Under the pieces are notes generated by a model. That model did no database searches. It worked only from the letters and a program-made list of their open reading frames with translations, and was not told the DNA's origin. A stretch of DNA of 64,000 bases from NCBI GenBank assembly GCA_041664585.1, contig JBAYKL010000002.1, positions 13,494 to 77,493 of the forward strand, in the 5' to 3' direction. How positions within the stretch are numbered: position 1 is the stretch's first letter; every line of letters begins with the position of its first letter. Made by a program: the position numbers and the translations under genes. This stretch comes from Minisyncoccota bacterium (lineage in GTDB: Bacteria; Patescibacteriota; Minisyncoccia; Phycocordibacterales; GWA1-40-21). This document shows positions 11,911 through 44,733 of this stretch, in pieces.

Positions 11911-11994
11911 CTTAGTGCGTATAGTATACAAGATAAACGACCAAAATAAAAATGGAAAAGGAAAAGCGTACCTTGCGGTACGCTTTTCCATAAA

Positions 11995-12300
11995 CCTTTA
12001 TATCTATAAGCCGAATTCTGTATTCACCGAAGTGAACGACAATCATCTATCTGGGCCAAATATTACTACTTGGCTCAAGCGGCGCTTCCGCATAAAGCGG
12101 ACACGGCCTTGCACAGAGGTAAGGATTTAGCATGTTGCACTTCTGTCTTTCAACAGACATATTCCCGAAGGAACCCTAGCTTTTCAGCATCAGCATCACT
12201 GTTCGCACCTCTAAGATCACTCTAGACGGGCGTTACCCGCTACCCTGCTCGTTTAAATAAATAAACGCTGTGTTCGGACTTTCCTCTAGTTATAAATAAC
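11995..12300. ncRNA. GC-rich non-coding block with stable hairpins (candidate structured RNA; strand and identity unresolved)
   Basis: no plausible ORF; GC clearly above flanks; hairpins ccgcataaagcgg, ttcacttcggtgaa (UUCG) and ccttcgggaa. Confidence 0.3.
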
Positions 12301-12367
12301 CAGCGATTGTCTAATATGAAGGCCAAATAAGCATACAATATGTTGGGTAAAAAAGCAAGTGATTGGC

Positions 12368-12400
12368 TTGACTTTTAGAGTAAAAGATGCTATCATTTTA
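12368..12400 (+). promoter_or_regulatory. sigma70-like promoter (TTGACT-17-TATCAT)
   Basis: cttgacttttagagtaaaagatgctatcat upstream of the 12490 CDS. Confidence 0.45.
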
Positions 12401-12489
12401 TACAGAACGTATTGTAAGAGGAGTAGCAATTCCGCTATCCCCCGTTGAAAATTTCAAGAAAAAACACCAAATGGTGAGAAGGAGTAAAT

Positions 12490-13593
12490 ATGTGGATATA
12501 CATCATCGTATCGTTAGTTTTAACCGGGATATTACTAGCCGGTTTACACTTCGCCATGATCAAGTTGGCTGGATTACTCGCGGTCAGAACAATCTTACTT
12601 GCGAGTCCAAAAATTGGTCGTGCTATGGCTAGAACCAGAAATGGAAAGATAACTGGCTATATAGCGAATATGGCTGGTTTGGGACACGATATCATTCCAG
12701 AAACAGGAGAACTATTCAAAAGCCAAAGTACAAATCATGGCTGGTTGTGGGATCACTACGGTGTATTGTGGATAGGTTTCGATAAAATCCACAAATACAA
12801 TATAACCGTTGTGAAAATAGATAAAGACGGCAACTACAAAAAAGAAACGGTGGTTGCCGAGTCTTTGTTTTTATCACAGTCTTGGCCGATGATAATAAGC
12901 GACGAACTAAAGACAAAAGAAGGTATCGAGCTAGTAGCGAAGGTTAACCTAAATCTCATACTAACCCATGCTGGATTAGGTATGGGACATCAACCCAACT
13001 GGTCTATAGTAATCGATATGGCTGTTATGGCAGCTGTTAGAGATTTCTGTGGATCACACAGTATTGATGAAGTTTTTAGTAGACCACACGAGGGCTCAAT
13101 TGCGGATCATACTAAATCGAAACTTATTGATCTGATACTGAGTCTGAATAATGGTACTGAGGGAAACCCTGGACTAAAAGACAAGATTGGAATGCAGATC
13201 GCTTCTTTTAACCTCATCTCAATTGACATTGTGGATGAGAAAGTAAAGGAACAGCTGCAAGCCAAATTCAATGCTGAGCAAGAAGGGAAAGCAAGAGTTA
13301 CTACAGCCGAAGCTGATGTTCAGGTGGCCGAAAAAGAATTGCTGGCTCGGACAAAACGTGCCGAAGCGCTTCTTGTCGAGAAACAAAAAGAAGCTGAGGG
13401 AGTCAAAGCAATCGGTGATGCCAAAAATGCCGTGCTCTTAAAACGAGTAGAAGCATTTGGAAATAAACCTGAGCTTCTGGCTGCCATAATGACCGCTGAA
13501 GGATACCAAGCTGGTACCTTGGTATTTGGGGATAAGGCAATGATCCTTGGAGAAAGAAAAAATGAAACTAGGCCAGTTGATAAAAAAGATTAA
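12490..13593 (+). CDS. SPFH/band-7 family membrane protein (prohibitin/flotillin-like)
   Basis: N-terminal TM helix, globular domain, then a long charged coiled coil (KFNAEQEGKARVTTAEADVQVAEKELLARTKRAEALLVEKQKEAEG); GC-elevated. Confidence 0.5.
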   Translation: MWIYIIVSLVLTGILLAGLHFAMIKLAGLLAVRTILLASPKIGRAMARTRNGKITGYIANMAGLGHDIIPETGELFKSQSTNHGWLWDHYGVLWIGFDKIHKYNITVVKIDKDGNYKKETVVAESLFLSQSWPMIISDELKTKEGIELVAKVNLNLILTHAGLGMGHQPNWSIVIDMAVMAAVRDFCGSHSIDEVFSRPHEGSIADHTKSKLIDLILSLNNGTEGNPGLKDKIGMQIASFNLISIDIVDEKVKEQLQAKFNAEQEGKARVTTAEADVQVAEKELLARTKRAEALLVEKQKEAEGVKAIGDAKNAVLLKRVEAFGNKPELLAAIMTAEGYQAGTLVFGDKAMILGERKNETRPVDKKD

Positions 13594-14179: not shown

Positions 14180-14213
14180 AAAAAACCACCAATTAAATAA
14201 TTGGTGGTTTTTT
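14180..14213. terminator. intrinsic terminator (bidirectional; also serves the minus-strand pilin-like array)
   Basis: aaaaccaccaatt aaataattggtggtttttt. Confidence 0.6.
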
Positions 14214-14225
14214 CTTTTTAAAGAT

Positions 14226-14522
14226 TTAGATTGCTCCAATAGTTCTTAGAATCAAATTAATAATACCCTTAACAGATATCATTATAAATATACCGACAAC
14301 TCCCCACAACATACTTTTTTGACCGTCTAATCTTTTCTCTGGACTTTCTGCATTTTTTATAAAGACAAATACTCCGTAAATAAAATATGCAGTCGCTAAA
14401 GCAAAAAGTAAATATATTAATGGCGTAACTATTTGATCGTTTATATTACTAAGAAATTTATCAAAGGAAACCCCTTTACCACTTCCCTGTGCATAAACTT
14501 TTGGAAACAAAAAATCAATCAT
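14226..14522 (-). CDS. VirB2/TrbC-like pilin-like small membrane protein (paralog 1)
   Basis: 98 aa; TM1, short charged loop (KNAESPEKRLDGQK), TM2; shares the WG(I/V)VGIF(I/V)M(I/V)SV(W/K)G motif with its neighbours. Confidence 0.4.
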   Translation of the reverse strand: MIDFLFPKVYAQGSGKGVSFDKFLSNINDQIVTPLIYLLFALATAYFIYGVFVFIKNAESPEKRLDGQKSMLWGVVGIFIMISVKGIINLILRTIGAI

Positions 14523-14525
14523 AAA

Positions 14526-14876
14526 TTAAAATGGTGGCAATAGTTGATCAACACGGCCAGATTGAATTCCAGCAGTACCGAATGTACCTTGCAAGATATT
14601 TACAAGACCCCAGACAGATACCATAACGAATATACCTACGATACCCCAAATTATTTGAGTCTTAGCTTCCTTCTTTTTTTCTTCATCTCCAGCTACAGCA
14701 TAACGAAATACACCCCAGATAAAATACACAACCGCCAAAGATATAATAAAAGGTACCAATTTGTTTAATACAGCACTTGCCATAGCAAAAAGATCCCAAA
14801 TACTATTAACCTTTGCCTGTGCCATAGCCACAAAAGGCATAGCGAAAGTCGAAACCGCAATTAATAATTTCTTCAT
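14526..14876 (-). CDS. VirB2/TrbC-like pilin-like small secreted membrane protein (paralog 2)
   Basis: Sec signal peptide (AMAQA), TM1, loop AGDEEKKKEAK, TM2 IWGIVGIFVMVSVWGLVNIL. Confidence 0.4.
   Translation of the reverse strand: MKKLLIAVSTFAMPFVAMAQAKVNSIWDLFAMASAVLNKLVPFIISLAVVYFIWGVFRYAVAGDEEKKKEAKTQIIWGIVGIFVMVSVWGLVNILQGTFGTAGIQSGRVDQLLPPF
14596..14649. repeat. 54-nt segment identical to 15065-15118 (copy 1)
   Basis: atatttacaagaccccagacagataccataacgaatatacctacgataccccaa encodes IWGIVGIFVMVSVWGLVNIL in both paralogs. Confidence 0.9.
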
Positions 14877-14996
14877 AAATTATTTCTAAATAAAATTAAC
14901 TAATAATAAACTAACGACCCATTTAATTTAACACCCTATAATTATAAATCCTCACAAAGAATTAAGCAAACAGCTTATAAACACATATCCTTTAAT

Positions 14997-15473
14997 TTAA
15001 AGGTTCGGTATAACGTTGCTTATTTCTAATTGAGAATCATTTAAATTAAAGGTTCCCCTGAGAATATTTACAAGACCCCAGACAGATACCATAACGAATA
15101 TACCTACGATACCCCAAGTCATAAATTGTTTGCCGGCTTCCTTTTCTTTACCCTCTGAACGGATAAATTTAAATACACCCAAAAGGAACACTACTATCGC
15201 AGCAGAAACGATAAGAGCAATAATTGGTCTTAACATTCCACCAATTATCGTATTCATTATTAAATCAGAAAAAGTCTTTGGAGTTTTTGTAGCTCCACCA
15301 CCATTAACAGCATTGCTACCAGACACAACAGATCCCTGTGTAGGGTTAGCATAAAAAGGCGAATTGTTTTGGGCGTTCACGGACAAAAAAGCAAATGAGG
15401 AAACCAAGAGAAAAGCTAAACAGAAGATAAAAGATAGCCTTATAATTTTTTTATTTTTATTAAATATATTCAT
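14997..15473 (-). CDS. VirB2/TrbC-like pilin-like small secreted membrane protein (paralog 3)
   Basis: signal peptide, low-complexity linker, TM1, loop SEGKEKEAGK, TM2 identical to paralog 2 over 18 aa. Confidence 0.4.
   Translation of the reverse strand: MNIFNKNKKIIRLSFIFCLAFLLVSSFAFLSVNAQNNSPFYANPTQGSVVSGSNAVNGGGATKTPKTFSDLIMNTIIGGMLRPIIALIVSAAIVVFLLGVFKFIRSEGKEKEAGKQFMTWGIVGIFVMVSVWGLVNILRGTFNLNDSQLEISNVIPNL
15065..15118. repeat. 54-nt segment identical to 14596-14649 (copy 2)
   Basis: exact nucleotide identity to the first copy. Confidence 0.9.
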
Positions 15474-15477
15474 TTTT

Positions 15478-15882
15478 TTATTTTGTTAAGGCATCTATCG
15501 TACCAGTAATGATACTAGCGATAAGCTGCGCTCCTAGTAATAATATTATACCAATAATAGTATTTTTTAAAACAGTGTGAGCGGTGCTAATTTCTTTGCT
15601 ATTACCCCTAGCCTTAACATACAAAAATCCTGCATATATTAAAGCGAAAATGGCGAATACAGCACCTATTTTGGCAACAAAACTTAAGGCACTAGAAATA
15701 AAAGTTGGTATATCATTTACCCCGCCTAGAGGATTTTGGATTGTACTCCCAGAACCTCCGCTAGTAACTGGGGCAGTAACTTCCACTCCAGGAAGTCTAA
15801 TCCCCTGTGCAAAAGCATAAGAAGAAATACCGATGATCCCAATCGCAAATATTAGTACAAAAAGAAGTTTTCCTATTTTCAT
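15478..15882 (-). CDS. VirB2/TrbC-like pilin-like small secreted membrane protein (paralog 4)
   Basis: signal peptide (AFAQG), Gly/Ser-rich linker, TM1, loop KARGNSKEISTAHTVLKN, TM2. Confidence 0.35.
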   Translation of the reverse strand: MKIGKLLFVLIFAIGIIGISSYAFAQGIRLPGVEVTAPVTSGGSGSTIQNPLGGVNDIPTFISSALSFVAKIGAVFAIFALIYAGFLYVKARGNSKEISTAHTVLKNTIIGIILLLGAQLIASIITGTIDALTK

Positions 15883-15894
15883 TTTTTTAATAAA

Positions 15895-16308
15895 TTAACC
15901 TTTTAAAAATCTTAGTGCTTTGATACTAGGATCTACAAACCTATCTACTAAAGCATACACGACAAGCCATGCGGCCAACAACCAGAATAAACCCCACAAT
16001 GTTTTAGAAAACATTTTTTTTGCATCTTCTAACTTACTAGCATTACCAGGATTCATAAGTATTTGAGCACCGGCATATGCTAAAGTAAGTGCTCCAAGAG
16101 AGGCAGCAATCGCAACAAACCAATTGACTATACGATTGACTGTGCTGATAGCATCAGCAAAATCACAAGCGTCTGATCCTGTACCACACTGAATTATAGG
16201 CCAAAATTTACTTTCTGCGTGAGAAACACCAGGACATGATATAAAAGGTAGAACCAAAAAAGTTAAGAACAATAAAATTATAAATATTTTTTTGCTGTGA
16301 TTCTTCAT
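15895..16308 (-). CDS. VirB2/TrbC-like pilin-like small secreted membrane protein (paralog 5, Cys pair)
   Basis: signal peptide, CGTGSDAC motif, TM1, loop NPGNASKLEDAKK, TM2. Confidence 0.35.
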   Translation of the reverse strand: MKNHSKKIFIILLFLTFLVLPFISCPGVSHAESKFWPIIQCGTGSDACDFADAISTVNRIVNWFVAIAASLGALTLAYAGAQILMNPGNASKLEDAKKMFSKTLWGLFWLLAAWLVVYALVDRFVDPSIKALRFLKG

Positions 16309-16317
16309 ATAATTAAA

Positions 16318-17619
16318 TTATAACAAATTATTTAATTCCTCGCTTGCCTTTTGTACAGCACCCTCTAATCTTTCTCTGCCCGTTGTAATATTATCTATCA
16401 TATCCTGGAAGATAATATCTGTTTTGCTACTATTGGGATCTAACCAAGACCTAGAAATTAAAGCTGAGTTATAGAAGACTGATTTTGCAGAATCTGACAC
16501 ACCACGTGCAATCAAATCTCTTCTTGCTGGGGCAAAATTATTAAATCCCAAAAATACGGGAACTGTGTCAGCTCCTACAAGAGTAGAAATTGCATTAAAT
16601 GCAGGAACGATATTAGGTGAGCTCTTGAGTATTAAGAAACCGTATATATCACCGAATGTGATCTTGTTTTTAGAATCAAGTATTTGAGGAAGCATAGCAA
16701 CGTCGAAATTTAAATTAGGATTCTTCTCTTTTATATCAGAAATTTCTGACGCCTTTCCGAAGTAAACAGCCAAATCTCCACTCAAAAACATTTGTTTAGA
16801 AGAAGGTAGAGCGTTATTCCAAGAATAAACAGATTTCTTGGGATTTGAGTAGTCTGTATAAAATCTCAAAGCTGAGTAGGCCGGTATCTCTATACTTTTT
16901 GTATCTACCGAAGATCTACTATCTAAATAGCTCGAAACCTCTCCATTACTTCCAGTTGCTATAATTGGACTTCCAGCCTGCATTATTATAGAACTTATAA
17001 TAGCTTTGGCGTTATTTATATTTTTATATCCACCAAGAGATACTGCACTTTGAATTATATTCGCATTATTATCTACCTTAGACATCTTAGAAGCTAAATC
17101 TGGGAACTCTAACCACTTAGTAGGTGGAGAAGCAACTCCGACATCAGCAAACATATCTCTGTTCCAATACATCACTAACGGGTCTATAAAAAACGGTAAA
17201 CCAATAGCCCCATCCGCTGTCAAATATATCTCTGCCTCTTGAACAAAAGTATCTTTAAACAACCTCTCTGGTAAACTAGTAGCTGGTATAGGATAAACCT
17301 TATCACTATATCTCACTAGTAAATTTTGTGGTAATAAAACGATATCTGGGCCAATTCCACTTGCAATCGCTTCTACAAGTTCAGCGTCTATTGTTAAAAT
17401 ATTTTTTTGTACATATTTGATTTTTACGTCCTTACTCAAATCAATTCTCATCTTACTTAAAAAGTTTTCGAAACTAACAACATCGATTGTCCCCCATGCA
17501 GTTAAATTTACATTGGTATTAGTTGAATCCTTTGCTTTGTAAAGTGCAAAAGAAGCAATTCCTAATAATATAAAAAAGGCAAACACTGATATTAAAATTA
17601 CTTGAAAATTATTTTTCAT
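16318..17619 (-). CDS. membrane-anchored extracellular solute-binding-protein-like protein (SBP family 1)
   Basis: 433 aa; N-terminal TM anchor; periplasmic-binding-protein-like alpha/beta composition; tightly linked to the pilin-like array. Confidence 0.4.
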   Translation of the reverse strand: MKNNFQVILISVFAFFILLGIASFALYKAKDSTNTNVNLTAWGTIDVVSFENFLSKMRIDLSKDVKIKYVQKNILTIDAELVEAIASGIGPDIVLLPQNLLVRYSDKVYPIPATSLPERLFKDTFVQEAEIYLTADGAIGLPFFIDPLVMYWNRDMFADVGVASPPTKWLEFPDLASKMSKVDNNANIIQSAVSLGGYKNINNAKAIISSIIMQAGSPIIATGSNGEVSSYLDSRSSVDTKSIEIPAYSALRFYTDYSNPKKSVYSWNNALPSSKQMFLSGDLAVYFGKASEISDIKEKNPNLNFDVAMLPQILDSKNKITFGDIYGFLILKSSPNIVPAFNAISTLVGADTVPVFLGFNNFAPARRDLIARGVSDSAKSVFYNSALISRSWLDPNSSKTDIIFQDMIDNITTGRERLEGAVQKASEELNNLL

Positions 17620-21415: not shown

Positions 21416-21985
21416 TTACATAACACAGCGAACAGATTGTGGGGACGTTTTATTAACAGTTAATATCTTATTAAGGGTGCGATTAAAAAAATAAGCAAAC
21501 ATTACGCCAAACTCATCACTAGTCCAATATCTAACATTCTGAAAAGTTGCCCCGGCCAAGAAAATTTCTTGTTTTGATGGTAATCTCCAGCCTTCACCCA
21601 ACCCATGACAATAAGCAACAGCAGAATCCCAGGTCATACTGCGATTAGGGTCCGGGGTTTGCCAATTTACCACCACGTATGAAGCACACGGTTCCACCGA
21701 ACACACAGTAATTGTATCAGTCAACAAAGGATAGTATGAGAGACTCGCAGATACTGAGCTTATAAAAGATTTGACTACCAAACTATTTATATTTACTGGA
21801 AATCCTCCTGTATCTGTAGCGTATAGCTGCAATGCACTTTTTACTTCATGTAAAGACACGTTAGCTGCTGCGGTCTTACTTCTCGCTCTAACACTACCAG
21901 CAGAAGAAAGCACAATAGATGACAAAAAAGAAATAATAGAAATAACAACCAGAAGCTCAATTAATGTAAAACCCTTTTTGTTCAT
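21416..21985 (-). CDS. type IV pilin-like protein with C-terminal DUF1566-like domain
   Basis: prepilin leader KKGFTLIELLVVISII; C-terminus WRLPSKQEI resembles DUF1566/Lcl-like. Confidence 0.65.
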   Translation of the reverse strand: MNKKGFTLIELLVVISIISFLSSIVLSSAGSVRARSKTAAANVSLHEVKSALQLYATDTGGFPVNINSLVVKSFISSVSASLSYYPLLTDTITVCSVEPCASYVVVNWQTPDPNRSMTWDSAVAYCHGLGEGWRLPSKQEIFLAGATFQNVRYWTSDEFGVMFAYFFNRTLNKILTVNKTSPQSVRCVM

Positions 21986-22056: not shown

Positions 22057-22458
22057 TCATTGTATTTCCTTATCTGGAAACCACTTTTTTGTTTTGGCAA
22101 CACGGTGGTTTCTGAGATCATCGAGAATCATCTCGATGAGACCCAAACTAATGTAAGTGGACTCATCTAACACTGGCTTCTCTATCAAACCCATTATGTG
22201 ATTAACAAAACCCTCACCAGAAGAGCTATGCTCCCCAAAATGATGAGCCGTCTCAAACAGCTCTCGAACACCTTCTAATACCTTCCTTTCATTTCTAAAT
22301 GGGAATTCAGAGGTGAACAATGTCCTGAGATTATCTTGTGAACCAGTGGTGATGACGAAGAAAAATCCGCCACTACCACCCTCTTGCCCAATAATAATCT
22401 CAAGATCAGCCTGATTCTTTAAAATTTCAAAAGCAGTAGACTTCTTCAACCCAAACAT
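22057..22458 (-). CDS. hypothetical protein
   Basis: 133-aa ORF with coding-like composition; no recognisable motif. Confidence 0.4.
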   Translation of the reverse strand: MFGLKKSTAFEILKNQADLEIIIGQEGGSGGFFFVITTGSQDNLRTLFTSEFPFRNERKVLEGVRELFETAHHFGEHSSSGEGFVNHIMGLIEKPVLDESTYISLGLIEMILDDLRNHRVAKTKKWFPDKEIQ

Positions 22459-27562: not shown

Positions 27563-28183
27563 ATGGCATCAAATAATGTTCCCTATATGTCAGCTCCAGG
27601 TTCTATAGTTAAAATTTTAGAAAAAATAAAAGAAGCTGGAACTCCTGAAAACTTTAACGCTGATTTTTTATCAACCAAACTTGGGTTTAAGGGAGGTAAT
27701 TACAGAACCTTCATTTCGTGGGCTAAAAAAGCTGCACTATTAAATAGTGATGGAACACCTACCCAACTTTATAAAAAATTTAGAAACCCCACAACTTCAA
27801 AAAGTAGTTTTGCTCAAGCTATTAGAAATGCATACCCAGAACTTTATTCAAGAAATGAATACTGTCATGACCTCGACAAAAAAGGTTTTAAAGGATTAGT
27901 TATGGAGGCAACGGGTGAAGCACATGATTCTAAAATAGTTGATAATATAGTATCAACTTTCTTCAACGCAAAATCCCTAGCTGATTTTGATAGTAAAATC
28001 GATGCACCATTGGAAGAACCAATTTTGGAGGGAAAAAAAGAAGTTAATGAAACTAATACATCAAATAAAAAAATAAATTTAGGATTAAATTACACTATTA
28101 ATTTAGTTCTCCCTAAAACTGATGACCCTTCGGTTTATAATGCAATATTTAAATCACTTCGAGATAATCTTCTAAAAGATTAA
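27563..28183 (+). CDS. hypothetical protein (island gene A)
   Basis: 206 aa; immediately downstream of tRNA-Gln; 3-nt gap to gene B. Confidence 0.5.
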   Translation: MASNNVPYMSAPGSIVKILEKIKEAGTPENFNADFLSTKLGFKGGNYRTFISWAKKAALLNSDGTPTQLYKKFRNPTTSKSSFAQAIRNAYPELYSRNEYCHDLDKKGFKGLVMEATGEAHDSKIVDNIVSTFFNAKSLADFDSKIDAPLEEPILEGKKEVNETNTSNKKINLGLNYTINLVLPKTDDPSVYNAIFKSLRDNLLKD

Positions 28184-28186
28184 TTT

Positions 28187-28765
28187 ATGAACGATGAGTC
28201 AAATATAAAATTATTTGTTTTAGCTAATTCTTTAACTGAGAATAATTTAGATATGGTTGAACATAACCATAATATAGATTTGGGAAGAAAAGAACAAGCA
28301 CCTACTAAAGAGCAAGATTACTATGCTCAATTTGATTCTGTATTCAGGAAAGAAGCAAGAGAAATGTCGAAACACTATGAAGTTTTTTACTGTCTTGAAA
28401 AGTCAATTAGAAATCTTGTTGTGCAATTAATGTTTGAAAAGTATGGTGAAAATTGGTGGGAAGATAAAGTAAAAGAAGATATAAAGAATAATGTTAAAGA
28501 TAATATTCAAAAAGAAATCGAATCTGGTTTTACAGAAAGATCTCAATCTAATATTGACTATACAACTTTTGGGGAATTAACCGAAATTGTAAAAAATAAC
28601 TGGGAAGCATTCTCTGGATTATTTAGGGACGTTAAAGCTTTTTCAAAAATCATGAGTAGTTTAAATCAGTTGCGTGGACCTATTGCACATTGTTGCCCAT
28701 TAGCAGAAGATGAGGCTGTGCGTCTTAATTTGGTAGTAAAGGATTGGTTTAGATTAATGGAATAG
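28187..28765 (+). CDS. HEPN-like protein with Rx4H motif (island gene B; putative RNase/abortive-infection-type)
   Basis: C-terminal LNQLRGPIAHCCP fits the HEPN Rx4-6H signature in a predicted helical domain (Swt1/Abi-like pattern). Confidence 0.4.
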   Translation: MNDESNIKLFVLANSLTENNLDMVEHNHNIDLGRKEQAPTKEQDYYAQFDSVFRKEAREMSKHYEVFYCLEKSIRNLVVQLMFEKYGENWWEDKVKEDIKNNVKDNIQKEIESGFTERSQSNIDYTTFGELTEIVKNNWEAFSGLFRDVKAFSKIMSSLNQLRGPIAHCCPLAEDEAVRLNLVVKDWFRLME

Positions 28766-43344: not shown

Positions 43345-44733
43345 TTAGATTGTTCTGACCGGAAAAGGTTCAGTGCCAAGATTAGCAAGATTTCTCCCGC
43401 AATACCTCGCACCTTCACCACATTTACCAGTCTGCATGCATGGAGGCTCAAAGAAAGATAAGACCTCCTCATTACCTGCAAGATGCTTTCTGGCACCACA
43501 GCTCAATTGATATATTTCTTCTTGAGCGCAGAGACAGAGACGTTTTGCCTGTTCGTGTGCAATGGCATTAATCGTCCCTGACTTTTCGTATGTCACCATC
43601 GCACCATAAGGAGCCAGAACTGCAGCCAGAGTCTTTGGTAGCTCTTTAGACAACTTTAGCCAAGCTACCATCAAAACCTCAAGCTCCACGTCAGCCCCCA
43701 GTTGTTTTAATAACGGCGGCGAATATACAAAACCGTTGAATGAAGGCTCTGTTCTTCTGACTGTTCTGTGCCGCTGATCCTGCCCCATAGTGGCACAAGA
43801 GATAGATATCTCCATGCTGATATTTGATGCATTGTTGTCCATCAAACACGGCAGGAAATGTAACCTATCAACCGGATGCATATCATCTTTCCCCGGTTTT
43901 TTAATCCTGGGTACGTACAGGTTTTTCAGTCCACAGGATGGATGATATTCCGTTCCTGCGTAGAAACCTGGAATAAACGGCACCCAATCCTGTTTTTTCC
44001 TTCTCTCCTCTACAAAGGCAAAGGATATTTCCGGAAATTTCTCCAGGACTAAGTCCCGCATCATATCAGTCACGTTCCTCAACACCGGACTCCACGAGCA
44101 CTCCCACATAGTAACAAGAGTGATCAAATCAATCGTGTAGTCCAACCCGGTCGGCATTATTATTGGAATAAACATCCGCATTTGCTCTTGAGCAATCTTG
44201 GGGAAGTTATTTTTAAAAGAATCTGGTGCATTCGGTCTTTCCTTTTGAGAAACCTTCGCAACCAAATCTGTAGCCGAATCAATATAGTAACGGTAGCGAG
44301 CAATCGCCTTGTCGATGTAATACCCGATTTTATTCATCTGAGAACGGCTAAGCCCCGGCCAGTGAGCATTAATATATTCCATCAGACGTTTTTTGTCTGG
44401 ATTGGAATACATCGCTGCGCAAAAACGACCACTTCGTTGATCCGTATTATAGAACGGATGTGTTAGGTGCAGACCAAATGTCACATCACCCACAGAGACC
44501 CCCTCGATGCCAAAAGTAAAACTGGAGTGTTCCATGGTTGTGTGATGTCCAACTTTGAATAATCTTTCCTTAATATCGATCATGTCACCTAGCATAGGCG
44601 TTTCAGCACCATAGCAATATTTCGCAGCGTGTGAAGCCAAAATTTCTGGCGACACACTAGGCAAACAAACCAAACCGACCTCAATTGTTCCAGAGGTTTT
44701 TGATGGGATTACATTACCATTCTTGTCTTTCAT
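43345..44733 (-). CDS. thyX: tandem-duplicated ThyX-like flavin-dependent thymidylate synthase with Cys-rich C-terminus (GC-elevated)
   Basis: first half has a ThyX-like HHTTMEHSSFTFGIEGVS region with a degenerate RHR; second half has the canonical RHRTVRRTEPS (RHR-x7-S); C-terminus carries CxC...C...C; 462 aa. Confidence 0.55.
   Translation of the reverse strand: MKDKNGNVIPSKTSGTIEVGLVCLPSVSPEILASHAAKYCYGAETPMLGDMIDIKERLFKVGHHTTMEHSSFTFGIEGVSVGDVTFGLHLTHPFYNTDQRSGRFCAAMYSNPDKKRLMEYINAHWPGLSRSQMNKIGYYIDKAIARYRYYIDSATDLVAKVSQKERPNAPDSFKNNFPKIAQEQMRMFIPIIMPTGLDYTIDLITLVTMWECSWSPVLRNVTDMMRDLVLEKFPEISFAFVEERRKKQDWVPFIPGFYAGTEYHPSCGLKNLYVPRIKKPGKDDMHPVDRLHFLPCLMDNNASNISMEISISCATMGQDQRHRTVRRTEPSFNGFVYSPPLLKQLGADVELEVLMVAWLKLSKELPKTLAAVLAPYGAMVTYEKSGTINAIAHEQAKRLCLCAQEEIYQLSCGARKHLAGNEEVLSFFEPPCMQTGKCGEGARYCGRNLANLGTEPFPVRTI

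Follow-up and report, generated by a model that had tools for sequence, protein, structure and literature searches.

Background

The closest described relatives of the genes considered here are the VirB2-like gene arrays associated with the type IV secretion systems (T4SSs) of Patescibacteria, or candidate phyla radiation (CPR). In Southlakia epibionticum, a series of predicted pilins encoded in the T4SS cluster is essential for epibiotic growth (Wang et al. 2023; PMC10633639). A survey of 3,035 Patescibacteria genomes with the Pfam profiles PF18895 and PF04956 found VirB4 in 2,417 assemblies and VirB2-like genes in 1,948, placed the patescibacterial VirB4 within the MPF-FATA clade and described 441 VirB2-like arrays of 2 to 11 genes (Quiñonero-Coronel et al. 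2025; PMC12102498), such arrays being regarded as unique among monoderm T4SSs in a review of 2025 (PMC12857230). We analyse here an array of this family located in a 64-kb stretch of DNA (hereafter the window) from a metagenome-assembled genome (MAG) named Candidatus Paceibacterota by NCBI, whose relatives are Paceibacteria lineages; an earlier note on this stretch had supposed an episymbiotic lifestyle, and an episymbiotic CPR host is correct. In this array, five small genes, designated p5 to p1 in their 5' to 3' order, follow the genes of a methyltransferase and of a membrane-anchored solute-binding protein (SBP).

The five genes share with the published arrays, such as that of S. epibionticum ML1 (SEML1_0006-0019; PMC10633639, PMC12102498), the PF18895 family, a tandem arrangement of divergent paralogs, a chromosomal location in a monoderm CPR bacterium and a context devoid of relaxase. 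Identity between paralogs averages 25% with a maximum of 54% in the published arrays, and ranges from 22 to 57% pairwise in the window. The survey was centred on virB4 and its arrays are those lying within about 20 coding sequences of this gene, whereas the present one is at least 24-56 kb away from any T4SS gene; it is tied instead to the methyltransferase and to a MalE-like SBP, in a fixed order and with SBP::pilin fusions. With the VirB2/TrbC/TraA pilins (PF04956; for example pKM101 TraM, 8cw4), the proteins have in common a signal peptide, an A-x-A-type site, two hydrophobic helices and a charged loop. The window set differs from these pilins by scoring below the PF04956 gathering score, by the lack of virB3-virB11 alongside and by comprising five distinct types instead of one, among which one is leaderless and another tolerates large N-terminal domains.

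The reading that we favour, at slightly better than even odds (about 0.55), is that these genes encode a heteromeric VirB2-like assembly of the cell envelope, presumably built by a T4SS encoded elsewhere, which displays an oligosaccharide-binding protein. A literature search returned no account of an SBP/methyltransferase-coupled pilin operon of fixed order, of SBP::pilin fusions or of recurrent conversion between p2/p3-type genes, and no link of Paceibacteria pilins to an SBP; the survey cited above makes no mention of SBPs (PMC12102498). Pilin arrays themselves are already known, and this operon, detached from virB4, is a variant of them that we did not find described.

Results and discussion

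A widely conserved envelope operon with a fixed gene order

The window SBP and p1-p5 are encoded by six co-directional open reading frames (ORFs) of the minus strand (14226-17619; Table 1), preceded at 7 nt by the methyltransferase gene, beyond which lies GyrA. An alignment of the SBP searched against one genome per species retrieved it from at least 581 species-level genomes; the best 80 loci (SBP identity 42-59%) were compared, and neighbouring genes were counted over 82 loci. Among the 72 informative loci, i.e. those in which 2.5 kb or more of sequence follow the SBP gene, 71 have this gene directly followed by three to seven ORFs matching a pilin hidden Markov model (HMM), mostly after a gap of 0-20 nt. 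Five such ORFs are the commonest case (29 loci), followed by six (20 loci), seven (12), four (7) and three (3). The methyltransferase gene is directly upstream in 79 of the 82 loci, often with a 4-nt overlap between its stop and the SBP start, and this tight coupling suggests that it belongs to the module. The linkage between methyltransferase, SBP and pilins is even kept in the absence of GyrA synteny (L085), and two related loci, L001 (p2 identity 78%) and L002 (56%), reproduce the order GyrA, methyltransferase, SBP, five pilins and, later, MurJ. Downstream neighbours of the module are otherwise variable housekeeping genes. The three components thus form one unit, a widely conserved envelope operon of Paceibacteria. 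The earlier note placed the SBP gene at the end of the array; far from being an incidental neighbour, it is the 5' first gene of the six-gene block and the conserved first partner of the pilins, the block being closed on the other side by a hairpin that follows p1.

When each ORF was assigned to the best-matching window paralog, the order of the arrays read 5-4-(3/2)n-2-1. The exact order 54321 was found in 20 loci, and the other common patterns vary only in their p3/p2-type copies. Proteins p5, p4 and p1 are single-copy orthogroups of fixed position, conserved down to about 42% SBP identity and each with its own conserved motifs. The p2/p3 subfamily alone varies in number, from one to five copies. 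The earlier note had proposed to compare copy number across strains; between species, it varies in this subfamily and not in p5, p4 and p1.

Lineage-specific insertions on the opposite strand were observed within the pilin arrays of L062 (12750-13856, minus strand) and L080 (13023-14081, minus strand). They encode proteins of 350-370 aa with an N-terminal transmembrane (TM) segment, an Ala/Lys/Glu-rich, coiled-coil-like middle part and a conserved C-terminal domain. The L080 array also contains a further ORF of 258 aa (12199-12975, plus strand).

Five VirB2-like paralogs with two hydrophobic helices

All five proteins pass the gathering score of PF18895 (T4SS_pilin; 26.6 bits), with 34.4, 47.7, 29.3, 30.8 and 30.8 bits for p1 to p5, respectively, and this family is also precomputed on all close homologs. 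They are VirB2-like "T4SS pilin" paralogs of a Paceibacteria bacterium, and p2 is annotated as 'MAG: pilin' by NCBI. The best NCBIfam match for p1-p4 is NF045849 (E = 1e-9 to 1e-4), which describes the pilin-like conjugal transfer protein Mbov_0395 / ICE_MMCAP2_0565 of Mollicutes integrative and conjugative elements (ICEs). The scores, 37.8 bits for p2, 31.1 for p1, 29.0 for p4 and 22.1 for p3, are all below the cut-off of 40 bits, and p5 has no match. The similarity is to a monoderm conjugation system of MPF-FATA type, whereas the context of the window genes is not an ICE. A profile of p2 homologs aligned weakly (E = 0.07) with the pKM101 VirB2-type pilin TraM, collinearly over the end of the leader and helix 1.

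According to a hydropathy scan, each of p1-p5 contains two hydrophobic helices separated by a short charged loop, and p2-p5 begin with a signal-peptide-like segment ending in an A-x-A-type site. The earlier note had attributed a single topology to the five minus-strand genes; the ORFs and the helix-loop-helix layout stand, but p1 has no N-terminal hydrophobic leader, and its orthologs measure 79-105 aa throughout the related loci. The AlphaFold2 model of p2 (56-sequence alignment, mean predicted local distance difference test, pLDDT, of 78) consists of a leader helix followed by a two-helix hairpin, with helices at residues 2-22, 26-61 and 65-98. This protein is the best conserved of the five and gives the highest ortholog scores. 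Over the two-helix core, p3 is 57% identical to p2, and it carries a long Gly/Ser/Asn-rich region after its signal peptide. Orthologs of p4 conserve an FAQ cleavage-like site and an NPL motif, and p5 is distinguished by two conserved Cys before helix 1, in a C-x6-C-x-F motif kept in its orthologs. The possibility that p5 is a lipoprotein was considered and rejected because Cys25 of its 'FISC' sequence is not conserved in orthologs.

Fusions of the p5-type module to extracytoplasmic domains

In two loci (L042 and L069), no stop separates the SBP ORF from the p5 module; the latter has lost its leader, and the two parts are joined by a linker of about 40 aa. A database search revealed further SBP::p5 fused proteins (P0242, P0311 and P0315), two of which, P0311 and P0315, constitute a second fusion lineage, only 46% identical and with an unrelated Pro/Ala-rich linker. 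Both lineages have the operon structure methyltransferase, SBP::p5, four pilins, and in one of them GyrA is missing from the 6 kb upstream, where GroES/GroEL is found instead. The fused proteins keep the N-terminal anchor of the SBP, which makes them three-TM membrane proteins.

Other domains occupy the same place elsewhere. The gene at the p5 position in L037 (4722-6347) encodes a signal peptide, a Peptidase_S8 (subtilase) domain and the PF18895 module, and that of L006 (9462-10394) a signal peptide, a Kre9/KNH immunoglobulin (Ig)-like domain and the PF18895 module. More broadly, 14 proteins of at least 200 aa with a C-terminal module were found among the top 150 of 2,588 p5-matching representatives of 50%-identity clusters. 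The L037 and L006 architectures indicate that the pilin-like hairpin serves as a C-terminal carrier for differing extracytoplasmic domains. The topology of the fusions is consistent, as the SBP is located outside the cytoplasm and so is the N-terminus of a mature VirB2-type hairpin, and the fusions suggest that SBP and pilin are direct physical partners on the outer side of the membrane.

An oligosaccharide-binding protein without permease and a methyltransferase

The SBP, annotated by NCBI as 'extracellular solute-binding protein', passes PF01547 (56.2 bits) and PF13416 (50.7 bits) and has one N-terminal TM segment (residues 7-25). Its AlphaFold2 model (pLDDT 90) displays a confident MalE-like two-lobe fold, and the top Foldseek matches (E of about 1e-21, 15-19% identity) are SBPs for oligosaccharides, including sucrose, maltotriose, mannotriose and arabino-oligosaccharides, and its presumed ligand is a glycan. 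The window protein shares these families and this fold with the SBPs of CUT1 transporters (MalE, Atu4361, CpMnBP1, AbnE). It differs from them by its low identity, its TM anchor, its presence in the same operon as pilin-like genes, to one of which it is sometimes fused, and the lack of a MalF/G-type permease or ATPase in the 82 loci: no such partner was found in the locus, and no permease family occurs among the recurrent neighbours. The ATP-binding cassette (ABC) proteins within the window are limited to ABC-F proteins and one of exporter type. The methyltransferase matches Methyltransf_31/11/25 of Pfam. A more specific identity was sought and not retained, the similarity to the ArsM/UbiE core being only generic and far below the NCBIfam cut-offs.

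Recurrent gene conversion between old paralogs

An exact identity of 54 nt links p2 (14596-14649) and p3 (15064-15117); it had been reported in the earlier note, with the second interval displaced by one position. This length is far beyond chance, since the longest exact match between paralogs has a median of 14 nt in more than 70 related arrays. Between p2 and p3, nucleotide identity in the helix-2 tract reaches 96.5% in the window against 47.4% in the rest of the genes, and the same contrast is found in L001 (93% vs 44.6%) and L002 (84% vs 45.8%). Within one genome the two paralogs have common synonymous states, which differ across genomes (GTA/GTT/GTC; AAT/AAC), and identical residues use the same codon in 14 of 15 cases in the tract against 10 of 19 outside. 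Conversion tracts of 41-108 nt occur in several genomes, and in other genomes tracts of 55-108 nt are found at other positions among the p2/p3-type copies. This pattern of concerted evolution indicates recurrent gene conversion because synonymous states are shared within genomes and differ between them. The earlier note had left the choice between recent duplication and conversion; the former is rejected, as the p2 and p3 of the window, of L001 and of L002 fall into two distinct orthogroups, which makes the duplication old, and their sequences are only about 47% identical outside the tract.

A promoter-like leader in front of p2

Almost every locus has a gap of about 80-140 nt, with TATAAT-like hexamers, in front of its last p2-type gene. 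In the window, this p3-p2 gap contains a promoter-like TTGCTT (14969-14964) separated by 17 nt from TATAAT (14946-14941), and GGTCG (14919-14915) is located 21 nt after the latter and 43 nt before the p2 ATG. Across loci, the leader comprises TATAAT and, about 20 nt later, GGTCG(Y) with a TTTATTAG-like stretch; GGTCG is present in 24 of the 59 gaps, in most cases 32-50 nt upstream of the ATG (mode of about 43), whereas its background frequency is 0.056 per 100 nt. The total of a promoter and terminator scan did not exceed the shuffled expectation, so that the call of an internal promoter, which would drive p2 and p1, rests on conservation across loci. The conserved leader motif could be a regulatory 5' leader, and no Rfam family matched the p3-p2 gap at gathering scores, a scan of the window returning only RNase P RNA and four tRNAs.

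A possible surface assembly and its rivals

In the favoured model of a heteromeric VirB2-like assembly, the methyltransferase, SBP, p5, p4 and p3 would be expressed as an operon, and p2 and p1 from the internal promoter. Proteins p2-p5 would leave the cytoplasm through Sec and be processed by signal peptidase I after A-x-A-like sites (AMA/Q, VNA/Q, AFA/Q, SHA/E), resulting in membrane hairpins of about 80-100 aa with two helices, similar to VirB2-type T4SS pilins, and p1 would insert into the membrane without a leader. The five non-redundant types would then compose a single heteromeric structure, most likely a short surface filament or a channel. The p2-type protein is the best candidate for the major subunit, owing to its own promoter-like gap, its conservation, its copy-number expansion and its homogenised helix 2; conversion would keep this helix identical in the p2/p3-type copies, allowing extra copies to fit the same packing interface. 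The p5-type protein would be a specialised subunit whose extracytoplasmic N-terminus binds the MalE-like SBP, with covalent fusion of the two in some lineages, and the assembly would thus display a glycan-binding head for host-cell contact or scavenging. A comparison, by analogy only, can be made with the pilin operons of type IV pili and type II secretion systems, which also combine ordered, non-redundant small subunits, one of them abundant, and a specialised subunit able to carry an adhesive domain. There is no homology with these pilins, which have an N-terminal helix and a globular head, whereas the window proteins are two-helix hairpins without a prepilin-peptidase motif. The builder of the assembly would presumably be the MPF-FATA-derived T4SS of Patescibacteria (VirB4/TrsD/VirB3/VirB6) encoded elsewhere in the genome, as suggested by the homology of the proteins to the T4SS-linked essential arrays of sister classes. 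Table S1 of the survey records VirB4 in at least one genome that carries the module (L076, GCA_001821295.1; PMC12102498).

Several results weigh against this reading. The VirB2/TrbC-like nature proposed in the earlier note is borne out by PF18895 but not by PF04956 (TrbC), whose gathering score of 27.9 bits is not reached by any of the five proteins; only p1 matches it, weakly though collinearly, with 18.3 bits (E = 0.0027), and a TrbC match is precomputed on one ortholog in L085 and one in L002. A Foldseek search, uninformative for so small a hairpin, yielded nothing significant. As the earlier note had stated for VirB4, VirD4 and VirB6, no gene for these proteins, nor for VirB3, was found nearby, in this case over the roughly 84 kb formed by the window and 10 kb past each of its edges (Pfam on about 60 window ORFs and on called genes of the flanks), where the pilin HMM matched p1-p5 only. 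Similarly, no T4SS-like family was detected within 10 kb of the module in the 82 loci, among the recurrent families and the large ORFs tested. To our knowledge, there is no precedent for a large N-terminal cargo on a VirB2-type pilin in solved conjugative pili. Moreover, the first two Paceibacteria genomes of Table S3 of the survey each have one pilin gene beside VirB4, TrsD and VirB3, with VirB6 in one of them (PMC12102498), and since these two T4SS loci own a single PF18895 gene, the SBP-linked set is not obviously the T4SS pilin. In the listed rows of the same table, PF18895 appears only with 'VirB4 proximity = Yes', and the SBP-linked arrays of most Paceibacteria may consequently be missing from the published VirB2-like counts (PMC12102498).

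The constant separation of the module from T4SS genes, together with the single pilin that Paceibacteria T4SS loci appear to own in those first rows, makes a T4SS-independent membrane complex a serious rival, although on balance we consider it rather unlikely. The five two-helix proteins would here form, without any pilus, a hetero-oligomer of fixed stoichiometry (about 10 helices) anchoring the SBP in the cytoplasmic membrane, either as an unconventional uptake channel replacing the missing CUT1 permease or as a glycan sensor or anchor. The fixed order of non-redundant types suggests a defined stoichiometry, and the SBP without permease or ATPase, the three-TM structure of the SBP::p5 fusions and the leaderless p1 fit such a complex as well. 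Yet PF18895 also covers the essential arrays that are linked to T4SSs in Saccharimonadia and Microgenomatia, the module provides no energising component (ATPase or ion-coupled domain), no transporter built from VirB2-like hairpins is known to us, and the variation from one to five p2/p3-type copies is better explained by a polymerising major subunit than by a fixed channel. A bolder proposal, which we regard as doubtful, retains the VirB2-like heteromeric filament or conduit and makes the module an envelope machine in its own right, spread throughout Paceibacteria, instead of an accessory of the T4SS; VirB4 might not be needed for its function. With p5 carrying the SBP head, or a protease or Ig-like domain in some lineages, such a machine would allow episymbionts poor in permeases to grip the glycans of the host surface, or to harvest them, in a new way.

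An idea that extends the earlier note, of interchangeable surface or pilus subunits diversified by recent duplication for antigenic or host-range variation, appears improbable for the array as a whole. The differing number of p2/p3-type copies between species and the conversion tracts seen in several genomes go in its direction, as does the host-range versatility invoked for Patescibacteria arrays in the survey (PMC12102498), but conversion homogenises the copies and does not diversify them, the p2-p3 duplication is old, and p5, p4 and p1 are ancient, single-copy and position-fixed. Diversification applies at most to the p2/p3 subfamily. The small size and two TM helices of the proteins would also suit holins or bacteriocins, a role that the note had kept in reserve and that we judge highly implausible: no holin or bacteriocin family of Pfam or NCBIfam matched the five proteins, all of which pass PF18895, neither a lysin or immunity gene nor a phage context is present, p2-p5 have predicted cleavable signal peptides, and the operon is embedded in a housekeeping block and conserved across hundreds of species.

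Locus features and genomic surroundings

The window is part of a contig of 169 kb (Ga0376277_0000682, JGI), and the Pfam annotation of the surroundings of the module indicates housekeeping genes (GyrA, MurJ, ParB, TopA). The features of the locus are collected in Table 1.

Table 1. Features of the methyltransferase-SBP-pilin locus in the window
Feature	Position	Strand	Evidence and remarks
Class I S-adenosylmethionine (SAM)-dependent methyltransferase, 174 aa	17627..18151	(-)	Pfam; first gene of the conserved module
Membrane-anchored MalE-like (CUT1-type) oligosaccharide-binding protein (SBP), 433 aa	16318..17619	(-)	Pfam, TM scan, AlphaFold2, Foldseek
p5-type pilin-like protein, 137 aa	15895..16308	(-)	PF18895; always first in array
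p4-type pilin-like protein, 134 aa	15478..15882	(-)	PF18895; always second in array, single copy
p3, member of the p2/p3 subfamily, 158 aa	14997..15473	(-)	PF18895
Conversion tract in p3 (helix 2)	15064..15117	(-)	Identical to 14596-14649 of p2
Intergenic gap p3-p2, promoter-like	14877..14996	(-)	Sequence and conservation across loci
p2, pilin-like protein, 116 aa	14526..14876	(-)	PF18895
Conversion tract in p2 (helix 2, WGIVGIFVMVSVWGLVNI)	14596..14649	(-)	Exact 54-nt match
p1-type leaderless pilin-like protein, 98 aa	14226..14522	(-)	PF18895; always last, single copy
Perfect 15-bp hairpin with flanking A and T runs, bidirectional intrinsic-terminator-like	14180..14213	(.)	Terminator scan and sequence; closes the co-directional block

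Just past the array, the window encodes an SPFH/Band-7 (flotillin-like) membrane protein (12490-13593, plus strand), and the downstream neighbour found most often beside the module (25 of 82 loci) is a related family of about 388 aa. A bacterial class A RNase P RNA (Rfam, 125 bits; 11991-12322, minus strand) is located directly upstream of the MurJ start, and the ORFs listed at this place are spurious. On the other side of the module, a type IV pilin-like gene (21416-21985, minus strand) with a prepilin N-terminal methylation motif and a weak Lcl_C-like C-terminal domain indicates that pilins of the type IV pilus type are also encoded near it; this gene adjoins an ORF of 133 aa (22057-22458, minus strand) without family match. 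At larger distance are a DUF5343 (206 aa) and Swt1-like HEPN (192 aa) gene pair (27563-28765, plus strand), which could be a toxin or defence-type module, an unusually long ThyX-domain protein of 462 aa (43345-44733, minus strand) and a NusB-NUDIX fusion protein of 298 aa (48187-49083, minus strand). Two ORFs, of 470 aa (49613-51025, plus strand) and 459 aa (52811-54190, minus strand), have no Pfam family, the former showing a weak match, below cut-off, to a CAP12/Pycsar-type TIR (E = 0.002).

Conclusions

For the essential VirB2-like arrays of Patescibacteria, no pilus has been seen, and the T4SSs are devoid of relaxase. The array of the largest CPR class emerges here as a set with a defined order and no redundancy, genetically welded to a sugar-binding protein and a methyltransferase, and many such pilin genes appear to escape a survey centred on virB4. 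It also gives rise to testable hypotheses on the glycan ligand of the SBP, its contact with p5, the place of p2 as major subunit and the dependence or independence of the module on VirB4. If the module were indeed a machine distinct from the T4SS, it would represent a new route by which episymbionts hold or harvest the surface glycans of their hosts.

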